Shown piece by piece: positions 10,607 to 50,813 of a stretch of DNA of 64,000 nt. The notes beneath the pieces are model-generated. The model was not told where the DNA came from and did no database searches. It was given only the letters and a program-made list of their open reading frames with translations. The stretch covers positions 1,369,675-1,433,674 of the forward strand of contig OZ219786.1 of the NCBI GenBank assembly GCA_964291285.2, read 5' to 3'. The stretch comes from Alphaproteobacteria bacterium (lineage in GTDB: Bacteria > Pseudomonadota > Alphaproteobacteria > Bin95). The first letter of the stretch is position 1; every line of letters begins with the position of its first letter. A program made the position numbers and the translations under genes.

Positions 10607-11378
10607 GGCCCTGTGGACGTATTGACTCAGGAGCGTGTTCAGGGATTCCCGTGCGAGGATTTGTCTGAATCATGAGGCGTCGGCGATTCGGGGGTTTCTT
10701 TGATGTCGACGAAGATGACGAATGGAGACTGGGAGGTTGCGCTGGAGGTTTTCCGGCTTTGCCTTCCGAGGCGGGGTGCGAAGGCGAAGGACGACCGTCT
10801 GTTTCTGGAGGCGCTGCACTTCTTTGCGGTTCACAACATCACCTGGCGGGCGCTGCCGGAGCGGTTCGGGCACTGGAATACGGTATGGCGGCGTTTTCAC
10901 CGTCTGAGCCGTTCAGGGGTGTTCGAGGACTTTTTCGCCACGCTGGCGGATTTGAGCAGCACGGCGCACCTGGTTCAGATGTTCGATTCGACCGTGACCC
11001 GCGCGCATGTATCGGCGGCCGGCGCAAAAGGGGGCAGCAGGGTCAGGCGCTTGGACGCTCGCGGGGCGGTTTCAGCACCAAAATCCACCTGAAGACCGAT
11101 TTCGACGGCCTGCCGATCGCCTTCGACCTGACCGGCGGCGAGGCAGCCGACAGTCCGCATTTCGAGACCCTGATGGACATCGGCCCCGATGTCCGGCCCC
11201 GCGCCATCGTCGCCGACAAGGGCTATGACAGCGCCGGAAACCGCCAACTCGCCCGGAAAAGAGGCGCCCTGACCGTCATTCCCTACCGGAAGAACATCAA
11301 AAACAGGCCAAAGCGCTTCGCAAGCGCGCTCTACAGAGGACGGGCGCGCATCGAACAGGCCGTCGGCAAGCTCAAACG
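10607..11378 (+). mobile_element. IS5 copy 2, left part (interrupted by integrative element)
   Basis: Near-identical to 6757-7528; identity breaks after CTCAAACG at 11378; remainder at 50704-50813. Confidence 0.92.
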
Positions 11379-11556
11379 TTTCAGTATTCCACCGTACGCC
11401 TGTCTGTTCGTGGCAACTGATGTCAAAGGAAATCGTTGTGTATCAATGAAGTATTGGTTTTCCCGGTGGACAAGGCGCGCCAGGACTACGCCCCGGTTGA
11501 CTTTCATGTGTTGACCTGTATGGTGATATTCAGGGCTGTTTCGAAGGAATATCACT

Positions 11557-12825
11557 ATGTCAACACAGACCGGCAAGCGCACTGCAAACCTCAAGCTCAC
11601 CCTCAACAAGCGAAACGTCGAAGCCCTCAAGCCCCGGCACAAACCCTTCATCGCATGGGACGACCGCCTCACCGGATTCGGCATCCGCGTCCAGCCCTCG
11701 GGCATGCGCTCCTACATCGTCAACTACCGCGCCGGCGACGGCGGGCGCAAGGCCGCCAACCGGCGCCTCGTCCTCGGCCGCCACGGCCGCATCACCCCCG
11801 AACAGGCCAGGCGCCTCGCCCGGGAGACGCTGGGCCGCGTCGCCGCCGGCGAGGACCCCGCCGCCGGGCGCACCCGCGCCCGCGCCATGCCGACGGTGCG
11901 GGACGCCTTCGAGGACTATCTCGCCGCCGGGCCGGCGCGCAAGGACAGTACCGTTGCGGTATACCGCAGCACCGTCCACAAGGACCTCGGTGACTGGCTC
12001 GACCGCCCTCTCGACACCATCGGGCGCCGCGATGTCGAGCAGCGCTTCCGGCGCCTGAGCGAGAATGCCGGGTGGGTGCAGGCCAACAATGCGATGAAGA
12101 TGCTGCGCGCCCTCTACCGCCGCCAGTGCCTCGACCATGAGGGGCTGCACAATCCGGTGGACCAGTGGCGCGTCGCGGGCGGGCGGCCCCATCGCCCGAA
12201 ACGGCGCATCATCCAGCCGCCGGCCGAGGTGCTGCCGCGCTGGCACCGCGGCATCGAGGCGGCGGTGCGTAACCCGGTCGCCCGCGACGCCTTGCACTTC
12301 GGCCTCTATACCGGCATGCGCCGGGCCGAAGTATTCGGCCTCGCATGGGCGCGGGTGGACAGGGCGGCGATGGTGTTCCGGGTCGAGGACACCAAGACCG
12401 GCGCGCCGTTGGCGCTTCCCGTCACCCGGCAGCTCGCGGCCATTCTCGAACGCCGCCTGGCCGAACGCGACCGTGTCCCCGAGGCGAACCGGGGCTGGGT
12501 GTTCCCGTCCGAAACCAGCAGGTCCGGGCGTCTCACCGGCATGCAGCACATGAATGCGCGCATCGGCGAGGCGGGCGGCGCGAAATTCTGGTTCCATGCC
12601 CTGCGCAACTGCTTCATCACCGTCGCCGACCGCGACCTGATGCTGCCGGCCAGCCTGACCAAGCGGCTGGTCAACCACGCCCGGCCCCGGGACGTGACCG
12701 AGGGCTATGCCGCCGACTGGACCATGGAGCAACTCCGCGACGCCGCCCAGCGCATCTCTGACAGGATCGACGCATTGATCCGCGAAGGCATTCCCGCGCC
12801 ACCGGCCTTGCCGCCGACAGCATGA
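11557..12825 (+). CDS. Tyrosine integrase with N-terminal arm-binding domain
   Basis: WDDRLTGFGIRV arm domain; TGMRRAE, DTKTG, FHALRN, LVNH, TEGY catalytic residues. Confidence 0.93.
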   Translation: MSTQTGKRTANLKLTLNKRNVEALKPRHKPFIAWDDRLTGFGIRVQPSGMRSYIVNYRAGDGGRKAANRRLVLGRHGRITPEQARRLARETLGRVAAGEDPAAGRTRARAMPTVRDAFEDYLAAGPARKDSTVAVYRSTVHKDLGDWLDRPLDTIGRRDVEQRFRRLSENAGWVQANNAMKMLRALYRRQCLDHEGLHNPVDQWRVAGGRPHRPKRRIIQPPAEVLPRWHRGIEAAVRNPVARDALHFGLYTGMRRAEVFGLAWARVDRAAMVFRVEDTKTGAPLALPVTRQLAAILERRLAERDRVPEANRGWVFPSETSRSGRLTGMQHMNARIGEAGGAKFWFHALRNCFITVADRDLMLPASLTKRLVNHARPRDVTEGYAADWTMEQLRDAAQRISDRIDALIREGIPAPPALPPTA

Positions 12826-12839
12826 CGCGTGGACCTTTT

Positions 12840-13260
12840 CCGGGCCCTCGACATGGGTGCGGGTGGTGATGCGCTTGCCGTGCTTCTCGATGGTGGCCTC
12901 TTGCAGGAGGTCGAGGTCGCGGATCAGGTCGTGCCATTCGATGCTGACGCCAGCGGCGGCGCATCGGTCGGCCAGTTCCTTCTGGAGGACCAGCGCGAGG
13001 AAGGAGCAGAAGACGTGGCCGCGGATCGCGGCGTTGCAGGAGTGGTAGATCGGTCGGGTGCGCAACTGGGCCTTCGCCCGGCGGAACAGGTCTTCCACCG
13101 TGAGCAGCTCCCGGTAGCGGAGCACGGCGTTGAGCGGCGTCATGCCGGCGTTGGTGCGCCGGCCTATCTGGGGATATACCGGTGCGAGCCTCGCAAGGCG
13201 ACGATGTAGAGGTCCATCGGGTCGCGGGTGCGGGAGACCGGGCGGCGGATGGCGTCGTGG
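12840..13260 (-). pseudogene. IS1634-family transposase C-terminal fragment
   Basis: YRELLTVEDLFRRAK...RPIYH...IRGHVFCSFLALVL; no N-terminus or IRs. Confidence 0.75.
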
Positions 13261-18463: not shown

Positions 18464-18475
18464 CACACCCCACGC
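18464..18475 (-). other. Putative oriT nic site (MOBF type)
   Basis: Minus strand GCGTGGGGTGT^G, identical to the core of the F-plasmid nic sequence; lies between leading genes and an RHH gene. Confidence 0.7.
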
Positions 18476-19153: not shown

Positions 19154-20230
19154 CGTCTGCCTTCCGAGACGCTGGCAAAAGCACACAAGGAGTCAGTCGT
19201 GGCCGGGGCTGTCGAAGCTTCAGATCGCATACCTGCCGCCGATCCAGGACAGCCACTCGCGCCAAGGGCCGCCTCGTCATGTGCCCATATCGGTCGATGA
19301 GACATTGATCTCGTACCACTCGACCTGGTGGCAAGTGATGAATTCGCGCCGGAAAAGCACGCTTTGGTTCGATCGTCGCGGACCGAATTCGGCAACATTC
19401 AGGCAAACTCGCGGCGGAGGGCAGAACTTGAAGGGACAGAGAATCGCGGCCAGGTGAACGTCCGAACCGGATTCCCGTAGAGTTCGAGGGCATGACCGTG
19501 TCCCATGCGGCGGCGTCAACGATGTCGGCCAGAATAGAGCGAACACTCGCGCACGAGCAGCAGGATGGCAGGCAGTCGGTCATTCGCCAGGACGGGATAC
19601 TCTCGTTCTGCGATCCTGTTGTGATCCTCGGCGATCCCGGCCTGGGGAAGACCGTGCTCACCAAGTGGCTCGGCGAGCAGCCCGGCATGAAGTTCTTTCC
19701 GGCGGGCACGTTCGTGCGCGCAGCCCTTCCAGCGAATTCGGCTTCCGGAAGCGAGCGCATCGTCGTCGACGGCCTCGACGAAATCGCCTCCGCTGCGCCG
19801 GGCGTTGCGGTCGACGAGGTGCTGAAGCAACTGTCGCTGATCGGCAAGCCGCCCTTCATCCTTTCCTGCCGCGCCGCCGACTGGCGGGGCGCCGCCGACC
19901 GGGTGAAGATCGAGGACGACTATGGTGCAGCACCCGTACTGCTTCATTTGCAGCCGTTCACGGAAGATGACGCCCGCGCTTTCCTCTCCGAGGAGTTTCC
20001 GGGGATCGATTCTACCGGGGTGCTGGAGCACCTGGCGCGCTGCGGGATCGAATCCCTGTACGAGAATCCTCTCACGCTGCGAATGCTTGGCGAGGTGGCG
20101 CAGGACGATGGTCCTCTTCCCGAGACCCGTGCTCAACTGTTCGACCGCGCCTGCCGCGTCATGCTCGAGGAGAAAAATCGGCGTCACCATCAGGGTTCCC
20201 ACGTTCGCAGAAGCGAGGAAGAACTGCTGG

Positions 20231-21446
20231 CAGGGGAATCGCTTTTGAAGATTAGCTTTTAGGAGTTTGCGTTTTCGATTCACACTCCCGTTTTCGTTTC
20301 TGTTGAGTTGGGGTGTGAGATGGAGGAGTTTTCGTCAGTATTCGAAGGAGTTACGGATCCGCGTCGCAGCAATGCGACGCGCCACTCTCTGCACGAGATG
20401 CTTATGATCGCGCTGCTCTCGACCTTGTGCGGCGGGGAGGGATGCGCGGACATGGAGCGTTTCGGTCGGGCGAAGGAAGGGTTTCTGCGCCGTTTCATGG
20501 AGTTGAAGCACGGCATCCCGAGCCACGATGCGTTTTCGGACCTGTTCAACGCCCTCGATCCCGACAGCCTGCAGAAAGTGCTGCTGCGGCTTCTGGAGGA
20601 CTGGGCGGCGGTTCTGGACGGCGATGTGATCGCGATTGACGGCAAGTCGCTGCGGCGTTCCTTCGCCGATGCCGCGGCGCGCTCGCCGGTGCATCTGGTG
20701 CAGGCCTTCGCCGCCGGGACCCGCCTGATGCTCGGCCAGGTGAAGGTCGATGACAAGTCCAACGAGATTGCGGCGATGCCGAAGCTGCTGGAGATGCTGG
20801 CGCTCAAGGGCCGGATCGTGACGGCGGACGCGATGCATACCCAGCGGGCGACGGCCGAGGCCGTTACCGCCAAGGGCGGGGACCATGTGCTGGCGCTCAA
20901 GGGCAATCAGGGCAGCCTGTATGAGGATGTGCGCCTGTATCTGGACGATCCCGCCCAGGCGGACAAACTCCAATCATGTCAGCATGTCGATGGCGATCAC
21001 GGGCGCATCGAGACGCGCCGCGCCTCGGTCTGCCACGAGATTGCATGGCTGCGCGAGCGCCATGACTGGCCGGGGCTGGCCGCCATCGGCAAGATCCAGG
21101 CCAGGCGCGAAACCGCAAGGAGCACCAAAACCGAAACCCGCTACTACATCATGAGCGCGCCGCTCGCGCCCGAGCGCTTCCAGCACGCCGCGCGCGCCCA
21201 TTGGACCATCGAAAACTGCCTGCACTGGGTGCTCGACGTGACCATGAACGAGGACCGACAGCGAAACCGCAAGGACCACGGACCCGAAAACCTCGCCCTG
21301 ATCCGACGCCTCGCCCTCAACATCGCACGCCGCGAACCCACAAAAGACGCCATGCGCGGAAAACTCAAGCGCGCCGCCTGGAACGACGACTTCCTCCTCA
21401 ACTTGATCCGGGCCGCAGCATGACAGGCCCAAAAGCGATTGCCCTG
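20231..21446 (+). mobile_element. ISAs1-family insertion sequence
   Basis: IRs CAGGGGAATCGCTTTTG / CAAAAGCGATTGCCCTG; 10-bp TSD GAACTGCTGG. Confidence 0.95.
20320..21423 (+). CDS. ISAs1 transposase
   Basis: GIPSHDAF, IAIDGK, KSNEI, VTADAMH, LKGNQ, HGRIETR, HWTIENCLHW. Confidence 0.95.
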   Translation: MEEFSSVFEGVTDPRRSNATRHSLHEMLMIALLSTLCGGEGCADMERFGRAKEGFLRRFMELKHGIPSHDAFSDLFNALDPDSLQKVLLRLLEDWAAVLDGDVIAIDGKSLRRSFADAAARSPVHLVQAFAAGTRLMLGQVKVDDKSNEIAAMPKLLEMLALKGRIVTADAMHTQRATAEAVTAKGGDHVLALKGNQGSLYEDVRLYLDDPAQADKLQSCQHVDGDHGRIETRRASVCHEIAWLRERHDWPGLAAIGKIQARRETARSTKTETRYYIMSAPLAPERFQHAARAHWTIENCLHWVLDVTMNEDRQRNRKDHGPENLALIRRLALNIARREPTKDAMRGKLKRAAWNDDFLLNLIRAAA

Positions 21447-22877
21447 GAACTGCTGGCAGGGGCCGGCGCCCTGTGCGCCGCACAACTGTTGTGCGGCCGC
21501 CTCGGAATATTCGACGGTCCGAACATGGAGACGCCGGATGGATACCTGAATGCGGTCGACGTTGAGGAGCTTCCGTGTGGCGGGGCGGCGAACGACGCGC
21601 TCAGGGTCCGTCTTTTCCATTCCGAAGGCGAAAGCCGTTTTACCCACGTCCATCGTGTGATCGCGGAGTATCTCGGCGCCAAATGGCTCGCCCGGTCCTT
21701 CGAAGCCGGCGTCTCCGAACAGAGAATATTCGCGTTGTTCCGCCAAGCCGAAAGGGTGCCGACCTCACTGCGCGGACTGCATGCATGGATGGCTCATTTC
21801 AGCGATGTGCTGGCCCGGCGCTGCATCGAAGCCGATCCTTATGCCGTCCTACGGTACGGCGACGCCGAGACCCTGAGCCTCGACCAGGCGCGATCCCTGC
21901 TTTCCGCCCTGAAGAATCTGTCCGAAAATGACCCGTTTTTCCGGGCCGAGGACTGGGGCCGCCATCCCGTATCCGGTCTGCTACGTATCGAACTCGAGGA
22001 CGACATTCGCGCCGTCATCGAGACGTCCCACAGCCACATACAGCTGGCGAGCCTGTTACTCGAAGCGATGGCTGGAAAGGATCTGGCGCATGCGCTTGCA
22101 CCGACGCTGGAAGCTATCGTTTACGACCGCAACCGATTTTACGATGCACGACATTCCGCCCTGCTGGCCTGGCGCGATGCCGATCCGCATCCTGGCCCCG
22201 AAGCAATCATTCGTCGCCTTCTGGAACTCAAGGATCCCGGTTCTGCGCGGCTGGCCTTCGATCTTCTGCTTCTCATCGGCGTTCCAAATCTCTCCGTCGC
22301 CGCCGCCGCCGATACTGTGCTGGCGCATCTGGGCTTCGCGGCAACGCCGGAAGAAGCATGGGAGTGCGTCGAGTCCCGATATGTTCCCGACTGCCTGTTC
22401 AGAGACATCGACGCGGTGACGCTTGGACCATTGCTCGATCGCCTGGCCGACGGCGCACGAACATTGACACACGGTAACGACCGGGACCCGAAATCCGACC
22501 TTGCAGACCTTGTCAGGCGTCTGGTTGTCCAGTTCCTGTCATCCGGCGTTGCGGTCGAACCGGCCCGATTATGGTCTTGGATCGGTTGGCTCGATGGGCG
22601 CCACGGCTACAGCGACACGAAAAAGGGGCAGCTGGCTGCGATCCTTCGCGACAACCGTACGCTACGCGCTGCATTGGTCGAACACGTGCTGCTTTCTCCC
22701 GGCGTCGATGGTGTCTTGATGGCTGGCCTTCGTCTCGCCCGAATCAAAGCCGGTCTGTATCCGACAGTCGACGATCTGGCGGGCATATTGCGGGGTTTGC
22801 CTGATCGAGCGGCTGCCGGCCCGATCGACCCGAAAATCTATCACGACCTGCTCTTGCTGGGGAGTACCGAGGAAGGC

Positions 22878-24816
22878 GAGAAATTTGCGCTGTGGGGTTT
22901 TTCCGGTCGGATGGGACGTTGGGTCCGGGTGTTGATGTTGTTTGTTCCGGCGTTCGAGGCGGTCGCCGCGGTTGCTTTTCGAACTTGAGCGGCCCAGCCC
23001 GGCAGCATCGCCGGCCTTCGGTCGCGTTTGTCCGTATGCCGGGGTCCGGCGGGTTGGGTCAGCGTTGTCGGCAGTCGGCTGAGGGGTCAGCCGGTATCGA
23101 GGTATGGCGCCGGGCCGACCAGGGAGCGCATGCGTGCGACGCGTCCGGCGCGGGCCTGTGCAAGCGCCATGGCCATCATGACCGCCAGGGCCAGCCCGAT
23201 GCGGGTCTTCATCTTCGCGCGTCCGCGGATGTAATGGGTCTCGAAGTTGAAGCTGCGGTCGAGGCGGGCGTTGATCCGCTCCATGGCGGTGCGCCGGTTG
23301 TATCCGCGCCGCCATGACGGGCTGCCCCAGGGCGTGGGCGTGAAGATACGCCGGTCATGGCTGTCGAGGTCGACGCGCAGGATGCGGCCGTATTCGCCGG
23401 ACTTCACCCCACCCGCCCGATGGCAGGCCCGGCGTCCCTTGCACTCGAAGCCGAAGGCGGCTGCGGGGCAGCGGTATTTGAGCGTGCCGCAGACGCCGCG
23501 CCCGACCTCGAACCCCTGGAAGGCCATGGCGCGGACCTCGCCGGTCTGCGGGCACACGCAGGACACCCGGCCGCGTTCGTCATGAACGATGACGTCGGCG
23601 CGCCCGGGGAACAGCGGTCGCGTGATCGGCCGGGCCGGGTCATGGCCCGGCTCCTTCTTCTCGACCCGCCACATCAGGCGCGTGTCGATCAGCGGGCGGA
23701 TATGCCACCTGTCCCACAGCCGCGCCTTCAGGCGGGCGTTGTCGAGACCGCGGTCGGCGCTGAAATCGGCGCAGCGCCCGGCCATCTCCGGCGCCTCGGC
23801 GAACAACTCCTCCAGCATCCCGGACAGCACCCCGGGTTCCGATGCCGACGCCCGCGTCACCTCGAAGGCCACAGGAACCTCGTGGTCCGTGTCGGCGATC
23901 AGGTGCAGCCCGTAGCCGAACCACGACTTCACCTTCTTCCACACCGCGCCGGTCTTCGCGTTCACCCCGCCCGTCTCGTGCCTGCCCCAGTCCGCATCGG
24001 GGTCCGAGGTCTGCCCCCTGGCCCCGGCAACCCGGCCCGTCGAGTGGCTCGCCACCGCCTTGCCGTCGTAGCCGAGATGGCGACCGAAGTCCGGCAACTC
24101 CTCGAACAGCGAGGCGCGCAGACGCCCGATCATCCCCGACACAAGGCCGCGCTCGTCCTCAAGGCGCACCACGCGCCCCAGGAACCGCGAGAAGTTCCAG
24201 GCGCCCGGCACCGTCGAGCGCAACGGCGCCGGACGCCTCACCGCGCGCCCTGCGCAAAGCGCCACCACCGGCGCACCCTGCAAGGGCAGCGCCTCGAACC
24301 CGCAAATCTCAAGCAATGCCGGGTTGCGGCCCAGCTCACGCAGCAGCGACTGCATCGAGGCATGCTGGAACACGATCCCCGCGATCAGAGCCCGCCACAT
24401 CGCCCGCACCGGGTAGTCGTTGCGACCCCGGCCTCGACCCGCCTCAAGCGCCGCCACAACCTTCTCGTCGGGAAGCGTGTCGAGCACCACACGCAGACGC
24501 TCAAGGTCCGCAAGGCCCTCCACAGACCACCACGAAAAGGCTAACTTCTCCGCTGTCGCCATCACGTTCTCCCAACCAGCGCCGGTGGATGGAACAAGGG
24601 CCGCAGGCCCGATGGCGACACCTTCTACTCAGTCCCGCGCCTCAACGCGACGCGCCCGAAAACCAGCCCGCGCACGGCCATGGGGTGGAAATCCACAAAA
24701 CCTTTCCCTCCAAACCGCAAAAACCCCGGAAATCAGCCATCCTGACGGGGTAAGAAAAATCCAGACCCTCCGCAATGCCTTGCTCAGAAAGCACTTCCAA
24801 ACAGCGCACACGCCTC
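22878..24816 (-). mobile_element. 1.94-kb IS (DUF772+DDE, IS1182/IS5-like), copy 1
   Basis: Imperfect IRs GAGAAATTTGCGCTGT / GAGGCGTGTGCGCTGT; flanked by AAGGC on both sides. Confidence 0.9.
23087..24565 (-). CDS. DDE transposase (492 aa)
   Basis: GRNDYPVRAM, YDGK, WFGYGLH, ADRGLD, RTAMERIN. Confidence 0.9.
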   Translation of the reverse strand: MMATAEKLAFSWWSVEGLADLERLRVVLDTLPDEKVVAALEAGRGRGRNDYPVRAMWRALIAGIVFQHASMQSLLRELGRNPALLEICGFEALPLQGAPVVALCAGRAVRRPAPLRSTVPGAWNFSRFLGRVVRLEDERGLVSGMIGRLRASLFEELPDFGRHLGYDGKAVASHSTGRVAGARGQTSDPDADWGRHETGGVNAKTGAVWKKVKSWFGYGLHLIADTDHEVPVAFEVTRASASEPGVLSGMLEELFAEAPEMAGRCADFSADRGLDNARLKARLWDRWHIRPLIDTRLMWRVEKKEPGHDPARPITRPLFPGRADVIVHDERGRVSCVCPQTGEVRAMAFQGFEVGRGVCGTLKYRCPAAAFGFECKGRRACHRAGGVKSGEYGRILRVDLDSHDRRIFTPTPWGSPSWRRGYNRRTAMERINARLDRSFNFETHYIRGRAKMKTRIGLALAVMMAMALAQARAGRVARMRSLVGPAPYLDTG

Positions 24817-28283: not shown

Positions 28284-28297
28284 CGCGCCACTACCGG

Positions 28298-36175: not shown

Positions 36176-36559
36176 TCAGGGCTGCGGCGCGGGGCCGCCC
36201 TCCGGATCGGCGCTGACCGAGACCGCCTGCCAGCGCGCCGCCGCGCCGGGATCGGTCAGACGGTCCAGGTCGCCCTCACGGGAGAGCCAAGCATCGACAG
36301 CATCGCCGAGAGCGGTCCAGCGGTCCCCAAGGTCGAGGTCCTCCATGCGCTCCTGCTCGATCTTTGCCAGCACCAGCAGTTCGCGCACCGCGCGCCGCAT
36401 GACGACGGCCGGCACCGCCTCCGCCATGATGGCCCGGTGAACGATGTAGCGCGATATTTCCATGCCCGCCTCGTCGGCAAGCTCCCTGATGCGCGCCCAC
36501 TCGTTCGCGGTCGCCATCACCGCATGCTGCGTGCGGCGGCCCCCCGGAGCCCGGCTCAT
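36176..36559 (-). CDS. RHH/MobC-like small DNA-binding protein
   Basis: QHAVMATANEWARIRELADEAGMEISRYI. Confidence 0.65.
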   Translation of the reverse strand: MSRAPGGRRTQHAVMATANEWARIRELADEAGMEISRYIVHRAIMAEAVPAVVMRRAVRELLVLAKIEQERMEDLDLGDRWTALGDAVDAWLSREGDLDRLTDPGAAARWQAVSVSADPEGGPAPQP

Positions 36560-39500
36560 GACAACGCCGCCGGACCTGCCGCAGCCATCAGAATTCCGTG
36601 CTTTACCAGCAAAGGTGCTTGCATTTCTCCCATATCAATTATCATATTCATCCTCTCACAGGTTGATTTGGTGCATCACCACGATGGTCGTGACTTTTTT
36701 CGTGCCAGAAACGCATTCATGCATCAGGCTACCCTCAATGCCCCCCGGAAACAATGCGTTGTCACTGTTTTACTTCCCCCAGTGCCACTATCGCGTTCAT
36801 GACCTTCCTGTAAGTCAGTCGGATTTCGTGCCAATGCCTCTTGCCATGCCCGGAAATATACTGTATTCAAGCCCCCTTCATGGGAGGAATGCGACCCTCT
36901 GTCAGATAGTGCCCTAACTCGAAAAATTACGTTCGGATTTTACACCGCGCCGGTCTTCGCGTTCACCCCGCCCGTCTCGTGCCTGCCCCAGTCCGCATCG
37001 GGGTCCGAGGTCTGCCCCCTGGCCCCGGCAACCCGGCCCGTCGAGTGGCTCGCCACCGCCTTGCCGTCGTAGCCGAGATGGCGACCGAAGTCCGGCAACT
37101 CCTCGAACAGCGAGGCGCGCAGACGCCCGATCATCCCCGACACAAGGCCGCGCTCGTCCTCAAGGCGCACCACGCGCCCCAGGAACCGCGAGAAGTTCCA
37201 GGCGCCCGGCACCGTCGAGCGCAACGGCGCCGGACGCCTCACCGCGCGCCCTGCGCAAAGCGCCACCACCGGCGCACCCTGCAAGGGCAGCGCCTCGAAC
37301 CCGCAAATCTCAAGCAATGCCGGGTTGCGGCCCAGCTCACGCAGCAGCGACTGCATCGAGGCATGCTGGAACACGATCCCCGCGATCAGAGCCCGCCACA
37401 TCGCCCGCACCGGGTAGTCGTTGCGACCCCGGCCTCGACCCGCCTCAAGCGCCGCCACAACCTTCTCGTCGGGAAGCGTGTCGAGCACCACACGCAGACG
37501 CTCAAGGTCCGCAAGGCCCTCCACAGACCACCACGAAAAGGCTAACTTCTCCGCTGTCGCCATCACGTTCTCCCAACCAGCGCCGGTGGATGGAACAAGG
37601 GCCGCAGGCCCGATGGCGACACCTTCTACTCAGTCCCGCGCCTCAACGCGACGCGCCCGAAAACCAGCCCGCGCACGGCCATGGGGTGGAAATCCACAAA
37701 ACCTTTCCCTCCAAACCGCAAAAACCCCGGAAATCAGCCATCCTGACGGGGTAAGAAAAATCCAGACCCTCCGCAATGCCTTGCTCAGAAAGAACTTCCA
37801 AACAGCGCACACGCCTCAAGGCGTCCCGCCCGACTTGCGCAAAGCGGCCCTCGAAGTTGCCGGTTGCGATTCGGAGTTGTTGGCCATTGTTGATCAGCTA
37901 TCGGACCCGCCCCAACCGGAATGGAAGATCGAGGAGGAAAGGAACCGGGTAGAGTGCGAAGCCGAACGGCAACGGATGTTCCAGTCTCACCGCGACGCCC
38001 TTGCGAAGTGGGCCGGGGAAATCTCGGCGGGGGCTATCGGCGTCCTGGTGGAGCCGGCCAACGTCTATCTCGGTCGAAGACGCATCCATGTTCGGCAGCA
38101 CGCTTCGGATGGCGAGCCGTCTACCCAGGATATGATGCGTGAATATCTGGGCGGAGATCTGGCGGAACGGGTCATGGCCGGCTTCATCGCTGCCCTCGGT
38201 CGCGGCGACCTTCCGACAGCCTCGTCGATCGCGGAAGTCCACTGCGAGAGCAAGCATTGGCCAGCCGAAGCCGTGATGATCTGCGGTGTCCAGGAATTGC
38301 TTCGCCGCGGACAACCGATCCGCGCCATAGACCGGAACACCCTTGCGGCCGTCTACATGGCCTGGCAACGAGCGCCGGTGAACGGGCGAAGAGACGGGAG
38401 CGACCTCGGTACGGCGCTCGAAGGGGTGCTGTTCGAGAGCGATGCCGATTGGGAAGACCATTTCCAGACGAGCATCGAACCCCAACTGGCCGCAGATCTG
38501 TACCATGTCCACGAACTGGACCGCCTGACAACCGATTCCGATCTTGCCGGCCTGGCGGGCCGGCTCGCCGTGGACTGGCTGTGCCGATATCCGGCATTGC
38601 ATTATTCGACGCAGAAGAAGCTGCTCGCCTGCGCACTTGATTGCGCCGAAAAGCTTGATTGCGCCGAAAAGAAAGCCCTGCACGCGCTGATCCTCGATCG
38701 GCAGTCTGCCGTTTATCCCGACCGCCAAACGACGCTGCTGTGGCTGTCTGCGGACTATGCCGTCGACTTCGAAAGCCGCCGCGACACGCTTCTTGAGGTT
38801 GCGGCGAATGAACCGAAGCTGATCTGGCTCATCCGGGACCGTATCGCCCCGGAGCGGCATGGCTGGTCCGAGTTTTCCCTTTCCCAGCTCTCCTACATCG
38901 TCGAGGCCTTCGGCCAGCAATGGCCCTGGAGGGAACCTCCCGTCTCATACATGGGCCTTGAGAACCCATGGGACGCGACCGGGTTCATCCAATACGCCAT
39001 CGAAACAATCGGCGGCCGACCGACCCCCGAAGCCACCGAGGTCTTGCACATGCTGATTGCGGAGGACCACGCGCCGACCTATGCCGACAGGATGAAGCAC
39101 ATGCTTCACCTGCAGCGCCGCGCCCGGCGCGACTCCGAATATTCCGCGCCCACCATCGCCGAGTTCCGTGCGGTGGTGTCCCGGGCCCCGCCGGAGAATG
39201 TCGACGACATGCGCGCCTGGTTCGCAGATCGCCTCGAAAAATTCCGGAGCGGAATTCGTGGCAGCGACACAAACATGTGGGAAGCGTACTGGAATGACAC
39301 CGGCGAACCCAGGGTCGAGACATTCTGCCGGGACCGACTGATCGAACACGTCTCCAGGCTGTTGCCGGAGTCGATCCGCTTCGGACCGGAAGCGCTCATG
39401 CCCGGCCGGAAGCGTGCAGACATCGCGCTAACCCGAAACGCGATGAAGCTGCCAATCGAAATCAAGGGGCAGTGGGAAAGGAATGTGTGGAATGCTGTCA

Positions 39501-39758
39501 ACGACCAGCTCAGCACCAAGTATACCGTCGATTGGCAGGCCGACGGCCGCGGCGTTTATATCGTGCTTTGGTTCGGCGACGTTCCCGGCAAGAACTTGCC
39601 GAAGCATCCCGACGACCTTCCTCGTCCCGGGACGCCCGGGGAACTGGAAGGGATGCTGAAGGATCGATTGCCGGAGGCCCGACGCTCGTTGATCGATATC
39701 TTCGTCATCGACCTCAGCCGGCCCGCCCGGACGGCCTGATCCCGAGTCCGGGGTCGCA

Positions 39759-42746
39759 CTACATCTCCATCTCGAAGCCGCGCGATCCCCGGGACTTGTC
39801 CAGTTCGGCGACTCGTTCAGGCTCTGGCGCCTTGTCAGGCTCGGGCTCGCGGCCCTTGTCTTGCGACTCGCCCCGGGTTCCGGCAGGCCGCTCCGGCACT
39901 GCCCCCGGTCCGCGCCCACGCTCCTTCTCGTCGCCGCGCGCCTTCTCTTCGGCGAGCGCCTTCTCCGCCGCGCCGATTCCTTCGAGCGCGGAGACCCGCT
40001 CGCCGGTAGCGGCCTCCAGGGTCTCGCGGAGCGTTTTCGCATCGTCCGTGACCAGCGTCGCATTGTGGCGGGCGCGGCTGATCTCGACGTAGAAGCTTTT
40101 CTGCGTCGACAGTTTCGGGTGTTTCGCCTCCATCACCGCGATCACGTTGTCGACGGTGCGCCCCTGGAAGGCATGCACGGTCGAGGCCCAGGCATGGTCG
40201 AGATGGCGCAGTTGCGGGTCGCTCTTGCCGAGTTCCAGCGTCCGGCCGTCGCCGAGCCGGAAGGTAACCCGGTCGCCCCCGACCGCCGCCACTTCCGCCG
40301 TGTCGCTGTTGACCAGCCCGAGGCCGGTGTCGTTGCGCGTCCAGCGGATGCGGTCGCCGGCGCGGAGCTCCATGCTCTCGGTGCGGTAGACCTCGACCCC
40401 GCCGCGCTTCGCACCGACCCGGCGCGGCCGCCAGGGGACGGATTGTCCGTCCGGCCCCTCCAGCATCACCGTGCCCCTGGCCCCGTCGACACCTGCGACG
40501 CGGCGCTCGTCGCCCTTCGCGACGCCGAGGCTGCGATAGTCCCGGTGGAAGGCGACGACATCGCCGGGGACATAGTTCGCGGCAATCATCTTCTCGGCAC
40601 TTGTATAACCGTGGGAGACCAGCCGCTCAGCCTGATAAGCGGGGCCGCGGATGACGCCGTCGCGGGCGAGGCGCTCGCGGATGCGGCCGTTGATCCCGGT
40701 GCGGAGCGCATGGCTCGGCGCCATCAGCCCGGTGTTCTCGCGTTCGCGTGCGGAGAGCTTCAGCCAGCGCGCGGCGGCCGCGCCAGCGAGATTGTCCGGT
40801 TTCACCTCGGCAATGCGGTCGCCGAGCTTTCCGAAGGCCCTGCCGATCTCGCCGGCGAGGCTGGCGCGCACCGCCTCCTTCAGGTCGGCGTCCTTCTGGC
40901 GCATGATCTCGTCCATCACTGCCGTCTTCATGCCCGCCGCCTGCAACTGCGCGAAGGGCTTGCCCGCATCCACGGCATCAAGCTGCTTCCGGTCGCCCAC
41001 CAGCACCAGACGGGGGATGCGGATGGCGGCGGCGATCCGCAGCAGGTCGCGGGCCTGGACGGTCGAGGCGAGCGAGCCCTCGTCGACCACCAGCACGGTC
41101 TTGCGGAAGGCTGCACGCATTTCCCTGGCGCCCTTGCGGGTCAGCCGCCCCTCGGCGATGCCGGCATTGCGGGCAAGAAAGCGCTGCAGGGTCTCGGTCT
41201 CGATCCCGGCTTCGGCAGCCAATGTGCGCGCCGCCGAGGCGGACGGCGCGACGCCGATCGTGCGGTAGCCGCTCTTCGCGGCAAGCTGTCGGGCGCGGTC
41301 GAGCATGGTGGTCTTGCCGGTGCCGGCATAGCCCTGCACGCCGACCACCCGGTCCTTCGACGACAGGATGGTCCTGACCGCCTCCGTCTGGCCCACGGTG
41401 AGGCGGCCGTTGTGCAGGAGCGGCCCCGCGATCCAGCTGCGCATCACGGGGCGCGAGGCGCCCTGGCCGCGTTCCATCAGCGCGATGGTCTCCTTCTCGT
41501 CCGCCACCGCCTTGTCGGTGGTGAGCGACTCGCCCCATTGCGGAAGGCCGCAGGCGTGCAGCGTGCCCGCCTTCTCCAGTCGCGCGACGGCGGCCTCTGC
41601 CTCTCCGATGGCGACCGATCCCGGTTTCCAGGCCAGCGCGGCGGCGAGCAGGTCGGTCTTCGCGAACACCGCCTCGCGCTCGGACAGGTGCTCCACCGCC
41701 CAGGCCATCGCGGCGTCCGCCGGGGATTGCGGCGGGGGATCGAACAGGTCGCCCTGGCGAACCGCCGCGCCGTCCGGTTCCGGCCCCCGACCGGACGCGC
41801 GATCCTTACCCGGAACGTCCCGGCTCCACGCCACCGCGTCGGCCGTCAGCGCCTTCGCGTCGAAGCCCGGCCCCTCCGCCTGGCGCTGCCACATCTCCCG
41901 CAGTTCGGCGCGGTCGACATCGCGCTTCGCCGCCCGGGTCATCAGCGCCGCGCGCTGGGCGGCGCGCTGGTTTTCCGCCGGCGTGCCCAGGCCGCGCCCG
42001 TCCAGCGCCGCCTCGATCTCCGCGCGGCGGGTGGAGAAGGTATCGATCACCTCCCGCGAGACGCCGGCGATCTCGAACCGCCCGTCGGCATGGGTCTTCT
42101 CCAGGCGATAGCCGAGCGAGGCAAGTTCCCGCGCGAGCTCGCCCCGGTAGAGCGCGCCGACCAGCATCTTCGAGAAATACAGCTTCTCGTTGGCCATGGT
42201 GCGCCACTTGCCGTCCTCGCCCTGCACCATGTTGGCGATCACCGCATGGGTGTGGAGCTGCGGGTCGAGATTGCGCGAGGTCTCGTGGGTGAAGGTGGCG
42301 ATCACCGCCTTCTGGTCCCCGGCGCGGACCATTCCCCCGCCGTTCGGCGCCTTCATCCGGGTCTCGATCACGTTCCTTTCGACCCAGGCAAGAGTCCGCT
42401 TCACCGCCCGGCCGTGCGCCTCGGCGACGCGGGCGTCGCCGCCCACCAGCGCGGCGAGGGAGACCGATTTCGGGGCCGAGAGGGTGAGGTCGCGGCCGGG
42501 CCGGTGGACGATATCGCCGTCCTTGCCGGGGCGGCCCAGTTGCGGGCCGTCCGGCACCCGGCCTTCAAGGATCGCGGTGAAGGCGTCCGGATCGACCGGG
42601 CCGGAAAGGCCCAGCGCCTTCGCACCCTTGCCGGCCCAGGCGCTGGCATCGCGGTGCTCGGCGGAATCCTTCGCGTAATAGCCGTCCCTCTCGTAGTAGC
42701 TCACGCCCTGGGACGGCGCGGCGACGGCGCCGATCGAGGCGACCAT
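39759..42746 (-). CDS. MOBF (TrwC/TraI-like) relaxase-helicase
   Basis: SYYERDGYY catalytic tyrosines, DLTLSAPKSVS, HETSRNLDPQLHTH, QGYAGTGKT, VVDEGS, STVHAFQG. Confidence 0.95.
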   Translation of the reverse strand: MVASIGAVAAPSQGVSYYERDGYYAKDSAEHRDASAWAGKGAKALGLSGPVDPDAFTAILEGRVPDGPQLGRPGKDGDIVHRPGRDLTLSAPKSVSLAALVGGDARVAEAHGRAVKRTLAWVERNVIETRMKAPNGGGMVRAGDQKAVIATFTHETSRNLDPQLHTHAVIANMVQGEDGKWRTMANEKLYFSKMLVGALYRGELARELASLGYRLEKTHADGRFEIAGVSREVIDTFSTRRAEIEAALDGRGLGTPAENQRAAQRAALMTRAAKRDVDRAELREMWQRQAEGPGFDAKALTADAVAWSRDVPGKDRASGRGPEPDGAAVRQGDLFDPPPQSPADAAMAWAVEHLSEREAVFAKTDLLAAALAWKPGSVAIGEAEAAVARLEKAGTLHACGLPQWGESLTTDKAVADEKETIALMERGQGASRPVMRSWIAGPLLHNGRLTVGQTEAVRTILSSKDRVVGVQGYAGTGKTTMLDRARQLAAKSGYRTIGVAPSASAARTLAAEAGIETETLQRFLARNAGIAEGRLTRKGAREMRAAFRKTVLVVDEGSLASTVQARDLLRIAAAIRIPRLVLVGDRKQLDAVDAGKPFAQLQAAGMKTAVMDEIMRQKDADLKEAVRASLAGEIGRAFGKLGDRIAEVKPDNLAGAAAARWLKLSARERENTGLMAPSHALRTGINGRIRERLARDGVIRGPAYQAERLVSHGYTSAEKMIAANYVPGDVVAFHRDYRSLGVAKGDERRVAGVDGARGTVMLEGPDGQSVPWRPRRVGAKRGGVEVYRTESMELRAGDRIRWTRNDTGLGLVNSDTAEVAAVGGDRVTFRLGDGRTLELGKSDPQLRHLDHAWASTVHAFQGRTVDNVIAVMEAKHPKLSTQKSFYVEISRARHNATLVTDDAKTLRETLEAATGERVSALEGIGAAEKALAEEKARGDEKERGRGPGAVPERPAGTRGESQDKGREPEPDKAPEPERVAELDKSRGSRGFEMEM

Positions 42747-43531
42747 CAGTAGAATTGCTCGCCCGGCTCGCGCCTGCGCACAACTGCCTTGCCGCCGGGC
42801 GCCTTGTCCGTCTTCGTCCTGTCCGGGCGGCTTTCGGGATCGGCGGGGGCCGTTTTGGCCGGGACTGCGGCATCGCCGGCCGGTTCCGCGCTCTCCGGCG
42901 ACGGCAGGCCCGGCGCCCGTGCCGGCGGCAACGATTCCCGATGCATTGCGGACCGCCCGGCGTCGCCGCCGCCCCCCGACAGCCGCTCGACCTCGGCAGG
43001 GGACACCAACAGCACGCCGACCCTGCCGCTCCGGCGGGCGAGCGCCGCGATCAGTTCGCCGTCGCTCCACCCGTCCGGGTGCTCCGTCCGGCCCGCGTAT
43101 CCGGGCCGGGCCCGCGGCGCCGGCTCCACGACCGTCCCGCGCCCGCCCACGAACCGCCGCAGGCGCACCGCGACCCCCACCCCTATCCACATCCCGAACA
43201 GGGCAAGCCCGGTGCACGCGCCCAGCACCGCGCGATCCGCCGTCAGGGAGAGTATCTTTCGGCGGGCCCACCACGCCTCGTCCATGACATGGGCGAGTGT
43301 ATAACGTTCTACAGTAACGGCTTCGCCGGCCGCCGTGCGGTAATCGACAACCCCGTAGTCGCTGAAGCCGGCGGTCAGCATGGCTTCGACAAGCGTGAAC
43401 TTCCAGGCCGCGTACCAGTCGTGCCCGGTCGTGCCGAGCGCAAGCGCGAGACCGGCGACCAGCACCGCCATGCCGGCGGCGCAGACCCCGGCCACCGCCA
43501 GCGGCATCAGCCATATGTCTCTGTCAGGCAT
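42746..43531 (-). CDS. Two-TM membrane protein resembling a coupling-protein (TraD/TrwB) N-terminus, without ATPase domain
   Basis: Two hydrophobic segments; occupies the trwB position, TGATG-coupled to the relaxase; no Walker A. Confidence 0.5.
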   Translation of the reverse strand: MPDRDIWLMPLAVAGVCAAGMAVLVAGLALALGTTGHDWYAAWKFTLVEAMLTAGFSDYGVVDYRTAAGEAVTVERYTLAHVMDEAWWARRKILSLTADRAVLGACTGLALFGMWIGVGVAVRLRRFVGGRGTVVEPAPRARPGYAGRTEHPDGWSDGELIAALARRSGRVGVLLVSPAEVERLSGGGGDAGRSAMHRESLPPARAPGLPSPESAEPAGDAAVPAKTAPADPESRPDRTKTDKAPGGKAVVRRREPGEQFY

Positions 43532-45175: not shown

Positions 45176-47114
45176 GAGGCGTGTGCGCTGTTTGGAAGTG
45201 CTTTCTGAGCAAGGCATTGCGGAGGGTCTGGATTTTTCTTACCCCGTCAGGATGGCTGATTTCCGGGGTTTTTGCGGTTTGGAGGGAAAGGTTTTGTGGA
45301 TTTCCACCCCATGGCCGTGCGCGGGCTGGTTTTCGGGCGCGTCGCGTTGAGGCGCGGGACTGAGTAGAAGGTGTCGCCATCGGGCCTGCGGCCCTTGTTC
45401 CATCCACCGGCGCTGGTTGGGAGAACGTGATGGCGACAGCGGAGAAGTTAGCCTTTTCGTGGTGGTCTGTGGAGGGCCTTGCGGACCTTGAGCGTCTGCG
45501 TGTGGTGCTCGACACGCTTCCCGACGAGAAGGTTGTGGCGGCGCTTGAGGCGGGTCGAGGCCGGGGTCGCAACGACTACCCGGTGCGGGCGATGTGGCGG
45601 GCTCTGATCGCGGGGATCGTGTTCCAGCATGCCTCGATGCAGTCGCTGCTGCGTGAGCTGGGCCGCAACCCGGCATTGCTTGAGATTTGCGGGTTCGAGG
45701 CGCTGCCCTTGCAGGGTGCGCCGGTGGTGGCGCTTTGCGCAGGGCGCGCGGTGAGGCGTCCGGCGCCGTTGCGCTCGACGGTGCCGGGCGCCTGGAACTT
45801 CTCGCGGTTCCTGGGGCGCGTGGTGCGCCTTGAGGACGAGCGCGGCCTTGTGTCGGGGATGATCGGGCGTCTGCGCGCCTCGCTGTTCGAGGAGTTGCCG
45901 GACTTCGGTCGCCATCTCGGCTACGACGGCAAGGCGGTGGCGAGCCACTCGACGGGCCGGGTTGCCGGGGCCAGGGGGCAGACCTCGGACCCCGATGCGG
46001 ACTGGGGCAGGCACGAGACGGGCGGGGTGAACGCGAAGACCGGCGCGGTGTGGAAGAAGGTGAAGTCGTGGTTCGGCTACGGGCTGCACCTGATCGCCGA
46101 CACGGACCACGAGGTTCCTGTGGCCTTCGAGGTGACGCGGGCGTCGGCATCGGAACCCGGGGTGCTGTCCGGGATGCTGGAGGAGTTGTTCGCCGAGGCG
46201 CCGGAGATGGCCGGGCGCTGCGCCGATTTCAGCGCCGACCGCGGTCTCGACAACGCCCGCCTGAAGGCGCGGTTGTGGGACAGGTGGCATATCCGCCCGC
46301 TGATCGACACGCGCCTGATGTGGCGGGTCGAGAAGAAGGAGCCGGGCCATGACCCGGCCCGGCCGATCACGCGACCGCTGTTCCCCGGGCGCGCCGACGT
46401 CATCGTTCATGACGAACGCGGCCGGGTGTCCTGCGTGTGCCCGCAGACCGGCGAGGTCCGCGCCATGGCCTTCCAGGGGTTCGAGGTCGGGCGCGGCGTC
46501 TGCGGCACGCTCAAATACCGCTGCCCCGCAGCCGCCTTCGGCTTCGAGTGCAAGGGACGCCGGGCCTGCCATCGGGCGGGTGGGGTGAAGTCCGGCGAAT
46601 ACGGCCGCATCCTGCGCGTCGACCTCGACAGCCATGACCGGCGTATCTTCACGCCCACGCCCTGGGGCAGCCCGTCATGGCGGCGCGGATACAACCGGCG
46701 CACCGCCATGGAGCGGATCAACGCCCGCCTCGACCGCAGCTTCAACTTCGAGACCCATTACATCCGCGGACGCGCGAAGATGAAGACCCGCATCGGGCTG
46801 GCCCTGGCGGTCATGATGGCCATGGCGCTTGCACAGGCCCGCGCCGGACGCGTCGCACGCATGCGCTCCCTGGTCGGCCCGGCGCCATACCTCGATACCG
46901 GCTGACCCCTCAGCCGACTGCCGACAACGCTGACCCAACCCGCCGGACCCCGGCATACGGACAAACGCGACCGAAGGCCGGCGATGCTGCCGGGCTGGGC
47001 CGCTCAAGTTCGAAAAGCAACCGCGGCGACCGCCTCGAACGCCGGAACAAACAACATCAACACCCGGACCCAACGTCCCATCCGACCGGAAAAACCCCAC
47101 AGCGCAAATTTCTC
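45176..47114 (+). mobile_element. 1.94-kb IS copy 3 (intact, opposite orientation)
   Basis: Same IRs; 7-bp TSD ATGCAAT. Confidence 0.92.
45427..46905 (+). CDS. DDE transposase (492 aa)
   Basis: Same translation as 23087-24565. Confidence 0.9.
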   Translation: MMATAEKLAFSWWSVEGLADLERLRVVLDTLPDEKVVAALEAGRGRGRNDYPVRAMWRALIAGIVFQHASMQSLLRELGRNPALLEICGFEALPLQGAPVVALCAGRAVRRPAPLRSTVPGAWNFSRFLGRVVRLEDERGLVSGMIGRLRASLFEELPDFGRHLGYDGKAVASHSTGRVAGARGQTSDPDADWGRHETGGVNAKTGAVWKKVKSWFGYGLHLIADTDHEVPVAFEVTRASASEPGVLSGMLEELFAEAPEMAGRCADFSADRGLDNARLKARLWDRWHIRPLIDTRLMWRVEKKEPGHDPARPITRPLFPGRADVIVHDERGRVSCVCPQTGEVRAMAFQGFEVGRGVCGTLKYRCPAAAFGFECKGRRACHRAGGVKSGEYGRILRVDLDSHDRRIFTPTPWGSPSWRRGYNRRTAMERINARLDRSFNFETHYIRGRAKMKTRIGLALAVMMAMALAQARAGRVARMRSLVGPAPYLDTG

Positions 47115-50026: not shown

Positions 50027-50259
50027 CGCCCCCTCCTGATCCCTTCACGGACGAAGACTTATCCCCCCCCCCCGCCGTCAAGCAAGTCTGCCTCGATTCC
50101 CTGATACGCGCGGAAGGTGTGCCGGATTGAGGCTGGCGATGCGGATTTTCGTGCCCAGCGATGGCGTCGTCGGAGCGTCGAGAAGTCGGGTGATGTTCGT
50201 TCGCCTGTCAGCGCCGGCTGGACGGCGCGTTTGGCGGTTCGGCGGACGAGCGGTCTGCC

Positions 50260-50519
50260 CCGGGCCTGCCGGTTTCGAGCGGGGACGGAGCAGGGTGCGC
50301 CGGGGCCTGGAGTTCCGCGCGGTAGCCGTCGTCGCCTGTGACGATGACATTCTGCCTCTCCAGTCGTGCATCGAGAGCGTCGCCGGCCCGGCCGATCTGG
50401 AGGACGCCTACGGCATGGAACGGCACCTGCTCTATGTCGCCTGCACCCGCGCCCACCTCCTGATGACAGGCGTCAGCCCGGCGTCCGAGTTCCTCGACGA
50501 TCTGCGGTGCAACACATGA
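50260..50519 (+). pseudogene. UvrD-like helicase C-terminal fragment
   Basis: GLEFRAVAVV...ERHLLYVACTRA (motifs V and VI). Confidence 0.7.
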
Positions 50520-50703
50520 CGCCGCCTCTCGGAGCGGCAGCAGAGGCCGAGGCGGTGCGCGGTCCTCACGGCTCGCTTGCCGCGACGATCCGGCTGTCGT
50601 GCTGATATAGTGTTGATACGTTTCTGGAAATATCCTGTGTTTTCACTGTAATGGATTGTAATTGCTGTATTAATTCAGCCCATCATCCGTCATGCCATTC
50701 AAA

Positions 50704-50813
50704 TCAAACGCTTCAAACGCATCGCCCTGCGCTGCGAAAAGACCGCCACAAACTTCAGCTCCTTCGTCGCACTCGCCGCTGCCTTCATCTTGATCAAATC
50801 CGTCCACAGGACC
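50704..50813 (+). mobile_element. IS5 copy 2, right part
   Basis: Matches 7522-7631; ends GTCCACAGGACC then TAG. Confidence 0.92.

Follow-up and report, generated by a model that had tools for sequence, protein, structure and literature searches.

In the analysed window, a stretch of 64,000 nucleotides that ends with its contig (positions 1369675-1433674 of contig C2 of the alphaproteobacterial genome G000, which consists of five contigs with 6.1 Mb), two families of elements with tyrosine integrases were found inside insertion sequences (ISs) that are present in many copies in the same genome. We propose, with a probability of about 75%, that both families use ordinary site-specific recombination with attachment sites that lie inside these multicopy ISs. 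The first family is represented by an integrative and mobilizable element (IME), the second by a smaller element with two adjacent integrase genes, which is called the twin-integrase element here. The anatomy of the window was derived from a self-comparison and from reading of the junctions. It was revealed that an IS of the IS5 family (IS-A) contains the IME of 39.3 kb, that the IME contains a NACHT-like gene, that this gene contains a dimer of another IS (IS-B), and that the dimer contains the twin-integrase element of 11 kb. An earlier note on this sequence had described the same order of nesting, and each of its structural statements could be located. The nesting is not due to chance, because the two halves of each split IS join up exactly once the repeated core is counted a single time, and identical junctions are found again elsewhere in the genome (7 attL and 9 attR for IS-A, 4 attL for IS-B).

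The outer layers of the window contain the following features:
6757-7631, + strand: intact copy of IS-A, 875 bp, flanked by TA on both sides; IS5 family, Pfam DDE_Tnp_1
7061-7073: second empty site of the intact copy, used by a twin-integrase element elsewhere in the genome
7522-7528: empty attB core TCAAACG of the intact copy (12-mer at 7522-7533)
10607-11378/83, + strand: left part of IS-A copy 2, ending in the attL core TCAAACG (11372-11378)
11379-50703, + strand: IME of 39.3 kb with P4-type integrase, SSB, YAcAr/SLOG protein, two NikA-like proteins, MOBF relaxase, HsdM fragment and subtilase
11557-12825, + strand: intA, tyrosine integrase of 422 amino acids with Arm-DNA-bind_3 (E=2.6e-15) and Phage_integrase domains
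12843-13159: fragment of an IS1634-family IS, 317 bp, common to all 7 sibling IMEs
39759-43514, - strand: TrwC/MOBF relaxase-helicase of the IME (NCBIfam MobF, 290.8 bits, cutoff 100)
50704-50813, + strand: right part of IS-A copy 2, starting with the attR core TCAAACG (50704-50710)

IS-A belongs to the IS5 family (NCBIfam IS5_3, 138 bits, cutoff 110), and its inverted repeats are GGCCCTGTGGACG / CGTCCACAGGACC with TA flanks. In the second copy (10607-50813) the interruption lies behind IS position 777; the junction repeat comprises 7 bp (TCAAACG) that are exact, or 12 bp with one mismatch. The empty TCAAACG at 7522-7528 that had been reported before is indeed present in the intact IS-A copy, and the IS1634 fragment said to lie behind the IME integrase was found as well. 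The idea that this fragment is the relic of an older attachment site was dropped, as it is internal to the IS and lies away from the element end. The integrase, the att repeats, the TrwC/MOBF relaxase and the NikA-like proteins characterize the island as a putative IME, a classification that is based on its genes. Pfam scans of 41 chosen open reading frames (ORFs) did not reveal type IV secretion system genes in the IME. Integration at the 3' end of a tRNA or tmRNA gene, by which P4-type islands are defined, was not observed in the window: both attachment sites lie in IS transposase genes, and the only tRNA gene is located at 61815-61891.

The earlier note had suggested to determine the occupancy of the other IS copies of this genome. 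A BLAST comparison of IS-A with the five contigs yielded 18 full-length copies, one copy split at 304-316, 7 left parts ending at 777 and 9 right parts starting at 766. An integrase with 100% amino acid identity to intA is encoded 7 times in the genome, and each of the 7 genes is preceded, at a distance of 174 bp, by an IS-A left part that ends at 777. All 9 right parts are preceded by the same IME end, which abuts IS-A position 766. Taken together, 7 attL and 9 attR are found versus 18 empty sites. The junction sequences were all identical. The outer IS flanks differ, except that the right flank of the window recurs on contig C3, and the occupied sites therefore represent separate loci. The recurring segment (window 50575-64000, 13.4 kb) has a 99.98% identical duplicate at G000:C3:2199669-2186244 and comprises the final 129 bp of the IME, the right part of IS-A and a housekeeping flank in which coaBC and a gene for an ABC1 kinase are found. 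The duplicate is due either to a segmental duplication or to an overlap that was left unmerged in the assembly, and thus one attR may have been counted twice. Four attL/attR pairs were found 35-60 kb apart on one contig.

The sibling IMEs have the left 7.9-8.4 kb in common, with 97-99.7% nucleotide identity. Their relaxases share 64-69% of the amino acids with the relaxase of the window at four loci and 93% at one locus, indicating that they are related, distinct elements that do not go back to the copying of a single insertion. Although the genome contains the 7-mer TCAAACG 266 times, all 16 junctions lie in IS-A; the 12-mer of the IS-A site occurs 28 times, 27 times in an IS-A context. This restriction to IS-A in spite of 266 occurrences of the 7-mer shows that recognition by the integrase must extend beyond the crossover core of 7 bp, which is the usual situation for integrases.

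The inner layers contain the following features:
19492-20229, + strand: NACHT-like gene, piece 1
about 20282-21446: ISAs1-family IS with a transposase gene at 20308-21423; first break of the NACHT-like gene
21447-22877, + strand: NACHT-like gene, piece 2, ending in AAGGC, the 5 bp duplicated by the IS-B dimer
22878-24816: IS-B copy 1, intact, 1.94 kb; transposase of 492 amino acids (DUF772 and DDE_Tnp_1) on the - strand at 23087-24565
23941-23950: empty core ACACCGCGCC of IS-B copy 1
24822-25894: left part of IS-B copy 2, ending in the core ACACCGCGCC (25885-25894)
25895-36941, + strand: twin-integrase element, 11,047 bp, which splits IS-B copy 2 after position 1073 and has the exact ACACCGCGCC at both sides
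26014-27138, + strand: intB1, tyrosine integrase with the full catalytic set (Arm-DNA-bind_3, E=1.7e-9)
about 27141-28283, + strand: intB2, tyrosine integrase with the full catalytic set, starting 3 bases past the intB1 stop codon (Arm-DNA-bind_3, E=2.3e-8)
29292-36113, - strand: cargo protein of 2273 amino acids with fibronectin type III repeats
36176-36559, - strand: NikA-like ribbon-helix-helix protein in the conserved right-end module
36942-37817: right part of IS-B copy 2, starting with the core ACACCGCGCC (36942-36951); AAGGC follows at 37818-37822
37823-39739, + strand: NACHT-like gene, piece 3
45176-47114: IS-B copy 3, inverted, flanked by ATGCAAT, which splits an HsdM gene; empty core at 46042-46051

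The three pieces of the NACHT-like gene align in order with one intact ORF of 1372 amino acids from a related genome. The NACHT domain scored below the Pfam gathering cutoff of 26.7 bits, both in piece 1 (26.2 bits) and in the intact homolog (17.5 bits). The second break of the gene was caused by the tandem dimer, which has the structure AAGGC-IS-AAGGC-IS-AAGGC. IS-B is best called an IS5/IS1182-like element, judging from the Pfam domains DUF772 and DDE_Tnp_1; it stayed below the NCBIfam cutoff for IS1182 (70.5 versus 270 bits). The claim that the second core is empty in copies 1 and 3 of the 1.94-kb IS held true, as ACACCGCGCC is uninterrupted in both. In the whole genome IS-B is occupied at the same base in 4 copies (in the window and at C1:1146193, C4:518088 and C5:343420) and empty in 24.

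The twin-integrase element of the window starts with CGCACCGGTGGGTGCTAAC and ends with GTTCGGATTTT. Its conserved left module stops at 28262, and the ORF that comes next is encoded on the other strand and did not match any family. The sequences of intB1 and intB2 are 40% identical. Both systems had been described as unrelated, which was not borne out: all three integrases have Arm-DNA-bind_3 and match Pfam Phage_integrase, and the integrases of the two systems share about 27% identity. An alignment verified that TG(C/M)R, (S/A/T)KTG, H(D/A)LR(H/N), (G/N)H and Y are present in intA, intB1 and intB2, which we take to be the catalytic residues R, K, H-x-x-R, H/W and Y. Neither three recombinase-fold genes nor an intA-tfp-intB-srap operon, which define the SE, GInt and RIT groups, were found in the element. 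Contigs assembled from three public runs of one study were aligned to 25600-37250 and yielded pieces of a few hundred bases; loose contig ends at 25894 and 36942 run on into IS-B, as expected from the 24 empty copies.

A translated search with the integrases of the window revealed 103 integrase loci in the genome, including 44 tandem pairs with the invariable order int1-int2. They fall into groups with >89%, 72-82%, 58-64%, about 42% and about 36% identity of int1 to that of the window. For 9 of 13 twin elements tried, the far end could be located within 200 kb, resulting in element sizes of 10-36 kb. All 9 are flanked by direct repeats of 10-13 bp, which are exact in 7 cases and contain one mismatch in 2 cases. 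The repeats and their targets, which were named with Pfam and NCBIfam, are:
ACACCGCGCC: IS-B, two elements, one with a mismatch
ACACCCCTGAACG: IS-A, position 304
ACACCACGGCCGC: another IS5-family IS (IS-C), two elements with both ends, a third with attL only
ACACCGCGCGC: IS1634-family IS, element of 21,826 bp
ACACCCG[A/G]GAG: YAcAr gene of the IME family
ACACAAGCGA: unnamed ORF of 600 amino acids

The left end could be read for 23 elements of the main family. Ten of them are located in ISs (IS-B four times, IS5-family ISs four times, IS1634 once, the end of an IS256 once), 9 of these in transposase ORFs; one lies in an IME gene, and 12 lie in unique or unnamed DNA. The IS256 case is found beside C2:434480, where a repeat with 24 copies was identified as an IS256-family IS that carries the twin element in its terminal 16 bp.

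A comparison of the left ends uncovered a common rule. The target is followed by ACACC, about 6 variable bases and CGCACC-N3-5-GGTGCTAAC. ACACC was found 11-14 bases ahead of GCACC at 21 of 25 left-end motif hits in this genome. In other genomes, the distance was 11-13 bases at 45 of 48 left ends, or at 38 of 41 when each distinct flank is counted once. No base is preferred between ACACC and GCACC, the top frequencies being 0.32-0.5. Among close relatives, in which int1 is about 90% identical, the overlap takes at least a dozen different forms, showing that the address has changed over evolutionary time. A target duplication of the transposase type was considered for the 10-bp repeat and was dropped, as the element has no DDE gene. 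A tyrosine recombinase synthesizes no new DNA, and since repeats of 10-13 bp are present at both ends, the attP must have carried the same bases. From the known mechanism of these enzymes, the variable bases would be the overlap of strand exchange, which must match and yet is itself not recognized. Among 85 genomic sites with ACACCGCGCC, unoccupied or bearing an attL, 4 of the 28 in IS-B are occupied versus none of the 57 elsewhere (Fisher p=0.010). Both a recognition beyond the 10-mer and the removal of insertions elsewhere by selection fit this result.

The IME of the window itself offers a docking site of a third integrase system:
18464-18475, + strand: empty attB CACACCCCACGC

The same CACACCCCACGC site is occupied in 4 sibling IMEs by a twin-integrase family with about 42% identical int1. 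Thus, elements dock in elements at several levels: IMEs in IS-A, two kinds of twin-integrase elements in IME genes, and twin-integrase elements in five IS families.

Relatives in other genomes were used to find out where homologous elements insert, an approach that the earlier note had also proposed. A scan of one genome per species with intB1 resulted in 52 loci with 68-83% identity, all in metagenome-assembled genomes labelled Alphaproteobacteria or Defluviicoccus, plus two of Chloroflexota/Dehalococcoidia. Three loci were omitted because the match started inside the protein, and 43 of the remaining 49 had a readable junction and enough flanking sequence. The target classes, determined with Pfam on up to three ORFs per flank, were:
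15 of 43: ISs or transposons (IS3 orfA four times, the end of an IS3 twice, IS1595 three times, IS66 once, DUF772-type twice, Mu-transposase-like twice, the end of an IS256 once)
4 of 43: other mobile or small regulatory genes
19 of 43: ordinary genes (dehydrogenases, transporters, hydrolases, a porin and others)
5 of 43: no hit

Sites were reused also in other genomes: IS3 orfA was hit three times in one genome, and an IS1595 three times in one chromosome. Part of the twin elements in other genomes thus lie in ISs. None of the nearest relatives of intA, which were searched in 40 related genomes, abuts an IS. Homologs with 86% and 82% identity border on the initial codons of a gene identified as ssb (Pfam SSB, E=1.1e-12). 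This gene is surrounded by Toprim/DUF7146, IstB and terminase genes and therefore lies within another mobile element. At G011:C1:4341835-4347897 two intA-like genes (82% and 58%) are arranged back to back around an ssb fragment of about 90 codons, indicating that ssb was struck at two positions by two related islands. Among the four homologs with 61-63% identity, the upstream flank of three adjoins the last 45 nucleotides of a tRNA-Met with 0-2 mismatches; the fourth, L007, has a flank of only 209 nucleotides, and no match to tRNA-Met was obtained for it. This reading is based on the 45-nucleotide match to one tRNA called by ARAGORN at locus L008, as a whole tRNA was present at 1 of 12 loci, and an Rfam scan of the loci L005, L006, L007 and L014 for partial tRNAs gave no match at E<=0.1. 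We conclude that the targeting of an IS by intA arose recently, through a change of address in a lineage that had already aimed at element-borne genes.

Two observations on IS-A relatives were made alongside. In genome G010 a tandem pair of IS-A-like copies (90% and 91% identical to IS-A) with a spacer of 2 bases is present three times (C2:1251285-1253039, 2086478-2088232 and 2735647-2737401), as if the dimer were the unit of repetition. At G015:C1:1061500-1066500 an IS-A relative is split at positions 766-769, the place of the IME core, by an IS of 1.9 kb of the IS1634 family with a TCAA duplication. This is the same family as that of the fragment behind intA; it could be a coincidence or a hot spot.

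On the proposed reading, the attP of the IME (CATTCAAA-TCAAACG-TTTCAG) would recombine with a site in the 3' part of the coding sequence of the 875-bp IS5-family IS. Each IS-A copy would thereby be a free attB, and related IMEs could accumulate to at least 7 copies. In the twin elements, the two adjacent and catalytically complete integrases probably act together. Their attP core would consist of a fixed ACACC anchor and about 6 freely variable bases, and the element could enter any site that shares the same 10-13 bases, which would then flank it as direct repeats. Such an address would be inherited and could nevertheless change, given that the variable bases differ between close relatives. 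When it lies within an IS, it would exist in dozens of copies, and the element could multiply in the genome. We infer that addresses in ISs are favoured because they are harmless and numerous.

A different explanation would be that each type of element integrated only once and that the IS with its passenger then spread by transposition of the composite in trans, or by homologous recombination or gene conversion among the IS copies, without any further activity of an integrase. Both IS ends indeed bracket the elements, intact copies could provide the transposase, and the divergence of the IS halves (2-3%) is comparable to that of the integrase regions (2-5%). In addition, IS-B halves beside different elements share variants near the junction, at positions -45, -67 and -155. 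However, the halves are not most similar to one another. Three of the four occupied IS-B halves were compared. Over 854 bp, the half in the window has no difference from two intact copies, and 18 and 23 differences from the two other occupied halves; from the closest intact copy, these two differ at 6 and 12 positions, versus 18-25 from occupied halves. Since each of the three halves compared is nearest to an intact copy, separate integrations are favoured. Moreover, the sibling IMEs differ in relaxase modules and cargo, the composites of 13-60 kb by far exceed the ISs of 0.9-1.9 kb, and ACACC with six variable bases and direct repeats is also found at unique sites that have no homology to an IS. 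A spread after a single integration is therefore regarded as unlikely.

The alternative offered in the earlier note, that integration has a low specificity and that survivors are mostly found in ISs because insertions are harmless there, is judged to be quite improbable. It would explain why the five bases ACACC are the only ones conserved across targets and why many insertions are located in ordinary genes (the 19 of 43 in other genomes), and selection could equally account for the lack of occupied sites among the 57 matches to the 10-mer outside ISs. In conflict with it, the same nucleotide was reused in each IS, four times in IS-B and three times in IS-C in this genome, and four times in IS3 orfA (three of them in one genome) and three times in IS1595 elsewhere; such a reuse of one nucleotide position argues against integration with low specificity. 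The direct repeats of 10-13 bp match the target and could not have been made de novo by a tyrosine recombinase, and all 16 IME junctions fall on one type among the 266 occurrences of the 7-mer. An artefact of a repeat-rich, metagenome-type assembly might be suspected as well, because 29.6% of the genome is repeated, the window lies at a contig end, 13.4 kb are duplicated at 99.98% identity, and the contamination is 4.77%. Nevertheless, mis-joins would neither yield exact duplications of the core at both ends nor recreate the ACACC rule at 48 left ends of independent assemblies, and this explanation is considered to be extremely improbable.

Several results weigh against recombination at IS-borne attachment sites as the explanation for both families. 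The relatives of intA use ssb or tRNA-Met, not an IS, and IS-A relatives are present in 18 of the 40 related genomes and were in no case seen to be split by such an IME. The record at IS-A has been blurred by rearrangements: 3 attL and 5 attR are unpaired, which indicates a later rearrangement. Within 45-67 bp of the junction, some variants are common to IS-B halves that adjoin different elements, which might reflect some co-inheritance. The public runs consist of short contigs, in which excised circles and repaired sites are not observable, and the activity of the elements is deduced from their structure. Last, the enrichment in ISs depends on the baseline. At >=90% identity, 29.6% of the genome positions have at least one other copy, 16% at least 4 and 14% at least 7. 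Compared with the multicopy baseline of 14-16%, the 10 of 23 twin elements in ISs are an excess (p=0.0006-0.0017), but they are not with the looser baseline of 29.6% (p=0.11, not significant), and with distinct targets (5 of 17 in ISs) significance is also missed at the 16% baseline (p=0.12). These figures are rough, as the elements are not independent events. The excess thus comes mainly from the reuse of the same IS site and not from a strong initial preference for ISs. Taken together, the notion of ISs as attB sites was upheld insofar as each system has its fixed site in the transposase gene of a multicopy IS, of which further copies are occupied at the same base. It is not a trait of the integrase families, in view of the targets of the intA relatives, the ordinary genes hit by twin elements in other genomes and the 5 of 17 distinct targets.

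The IME resembles P4-type islands and IMEs at tRNA genes in the architecture and the catalytic residues of the integrase, the short att core at both ends, the position of the integrase next to attL and a MOBF relaxase without a visible type IV secretion system; it differs from them in that the attB lies in an IS transposase gene that is split by the insertion, and in the 7-9 copies per genome. Other elements are also known to hunt mobile elements, i.e., IS110/IS1111 at transposon ends and Tn5053 at res sites. The prophage-like element phiRv1 of Mycobacterium tuberculosis sits in different REP13E12 copies in different strains. Its attB in this multicopy repeat (PMC9317374) is similar to the situation described here. 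phiRv1, however, encodes a serine integrase, is present once per genome and lies in a repeat that has not been classified as an IS, whereas here tyrosine integrases, several copies and defined IS families are involved. IME_oriT of Streptococcus agalactiae is, like the IME of this study, a site-specific IME with an attB on another mobile element and the possibility of more than one copy (PMC5704250). In contrast to the targets found here, which are IS transposase genes (and IME genes), up to 9 and 4 copies being occupied, it targets the nic site in the origin of transfer (oriT) of integrative and conjugative elements (ICEs), and two copies were reported.

Like the twin elements, integrases of the CTnDOT, NBU and Tn916 type use a short fixed motif with a variable stretch behind it at the crossover. 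A match of the variable bases is not required in CTnDOT and Tn916, so that their two junctions differ. In contrast, for 7 of the 9 twin elements with both ends located, these bases agree at the two ends. Most tyrosine recombinases need identity of the overlap, as stated in the abstract of PMC2817482. Two adjacent tyrosine-recombinase genes at one element end are also found in MTnPi1-3 ("Tyr duo"), Tn554, SEs, GInts and RITs (PMC5704250, PMC10214605). Unlike the twin elements with their direct repeats of 10-13 bp starting with ACACC, MTnPi elements have a low specificity and prefer AT (PMC5704250). SEs and GInts have a third recombinase-fold gene and a small protein, and no matching direct repeats (PMC10214605), and RITs have three recombinases, whereas exactly two P4-like integrases that are 3 bases apart are present here. 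The recombinase-driven transposon groups listed in PMC10214605 are ICE/IME, SE, GInt, RIT and Tn554, and none of these, as described there, has the architecture of two genes and direct repeats.

In the literature searched, to which subscription journals and supplements did not belong, no description of an IS-borne attB for IMEs was found. Ordinary site-specific recombination suffices as the mechanism; what is unusual is the location of the address and its consequences, namely multicopy IMEs, deep and targeted nesting, and an address that seems to be easily rewritten. Integrative elements are usually viewed as having one chromosomal address and thus one copy (for IMEs: PMC5704250). The same source states that most IMEs are single-copy and that only two site-specific IMEs have been reported to be multicopy, one of them being IME_oriT. 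When the address is located on an IS, docking sites multiply with the IS, the site travels with it, and an insertion is reckoned to be harmless to the host. An IS-borne address is therefore a testable route to runaway nesting and to genomes with 30% repeated DNA. The combination of ACACC with about 6 bases that match points to a recombinase pair from nature whose target might be changed by altering these bases. It is tempting to speculate further, although we regard this wider picture as rather doubtful, that a guild of elements with a tiny fixed anchor and a rewritable overlap has adopted ISs and each other's genes as self-copying docking sites, which travel between replicons and cells. The 7-9 IME copies, the 44 twin copies and the targeted hierarchy of nested elements might result from this, and the IS ends might also move the cargo.

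Some further observations concern the window and its ISs. Three tandem IS dimers were seen in the genome, and in all three the first copy is intact and the second is interrupted by an insertion (window 22873-37822 with IS-B, G000:C2:371644-373297 with IS-A, and G000:C3:1846806-1853221 with IS-B). Intact IS dimers may be unstable, leaving the disabled ones as survivors. Directly behind the split IS-A copy a gene for a C-5 cytosine methylase with an N-terminal helix-turn-helix domain (50816-51407, - strand) breaks off precisely where IS-A ends, which corresponds to position 114 of the 324 in the profile. The left flank of this IS-A copy has a low G+C content and is non-coding by eye, and the rest of the methylase was not seen there. 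Judging from the cut gene, the split IS-A copy may have been part of a rearrangement. The IS1634-family IS at 59548-61527, with a transposase of 599 amino acids (59648-61447), has about 48 further copies with 99.7-100% identity in the genome and is the commonest repeat seen. At the other end of the window, three tandem repeats of 69 nucleotides (4049-4255) lie within an ORF of 1252 amino acids (657-4415) with a bacterial SH3 domain.

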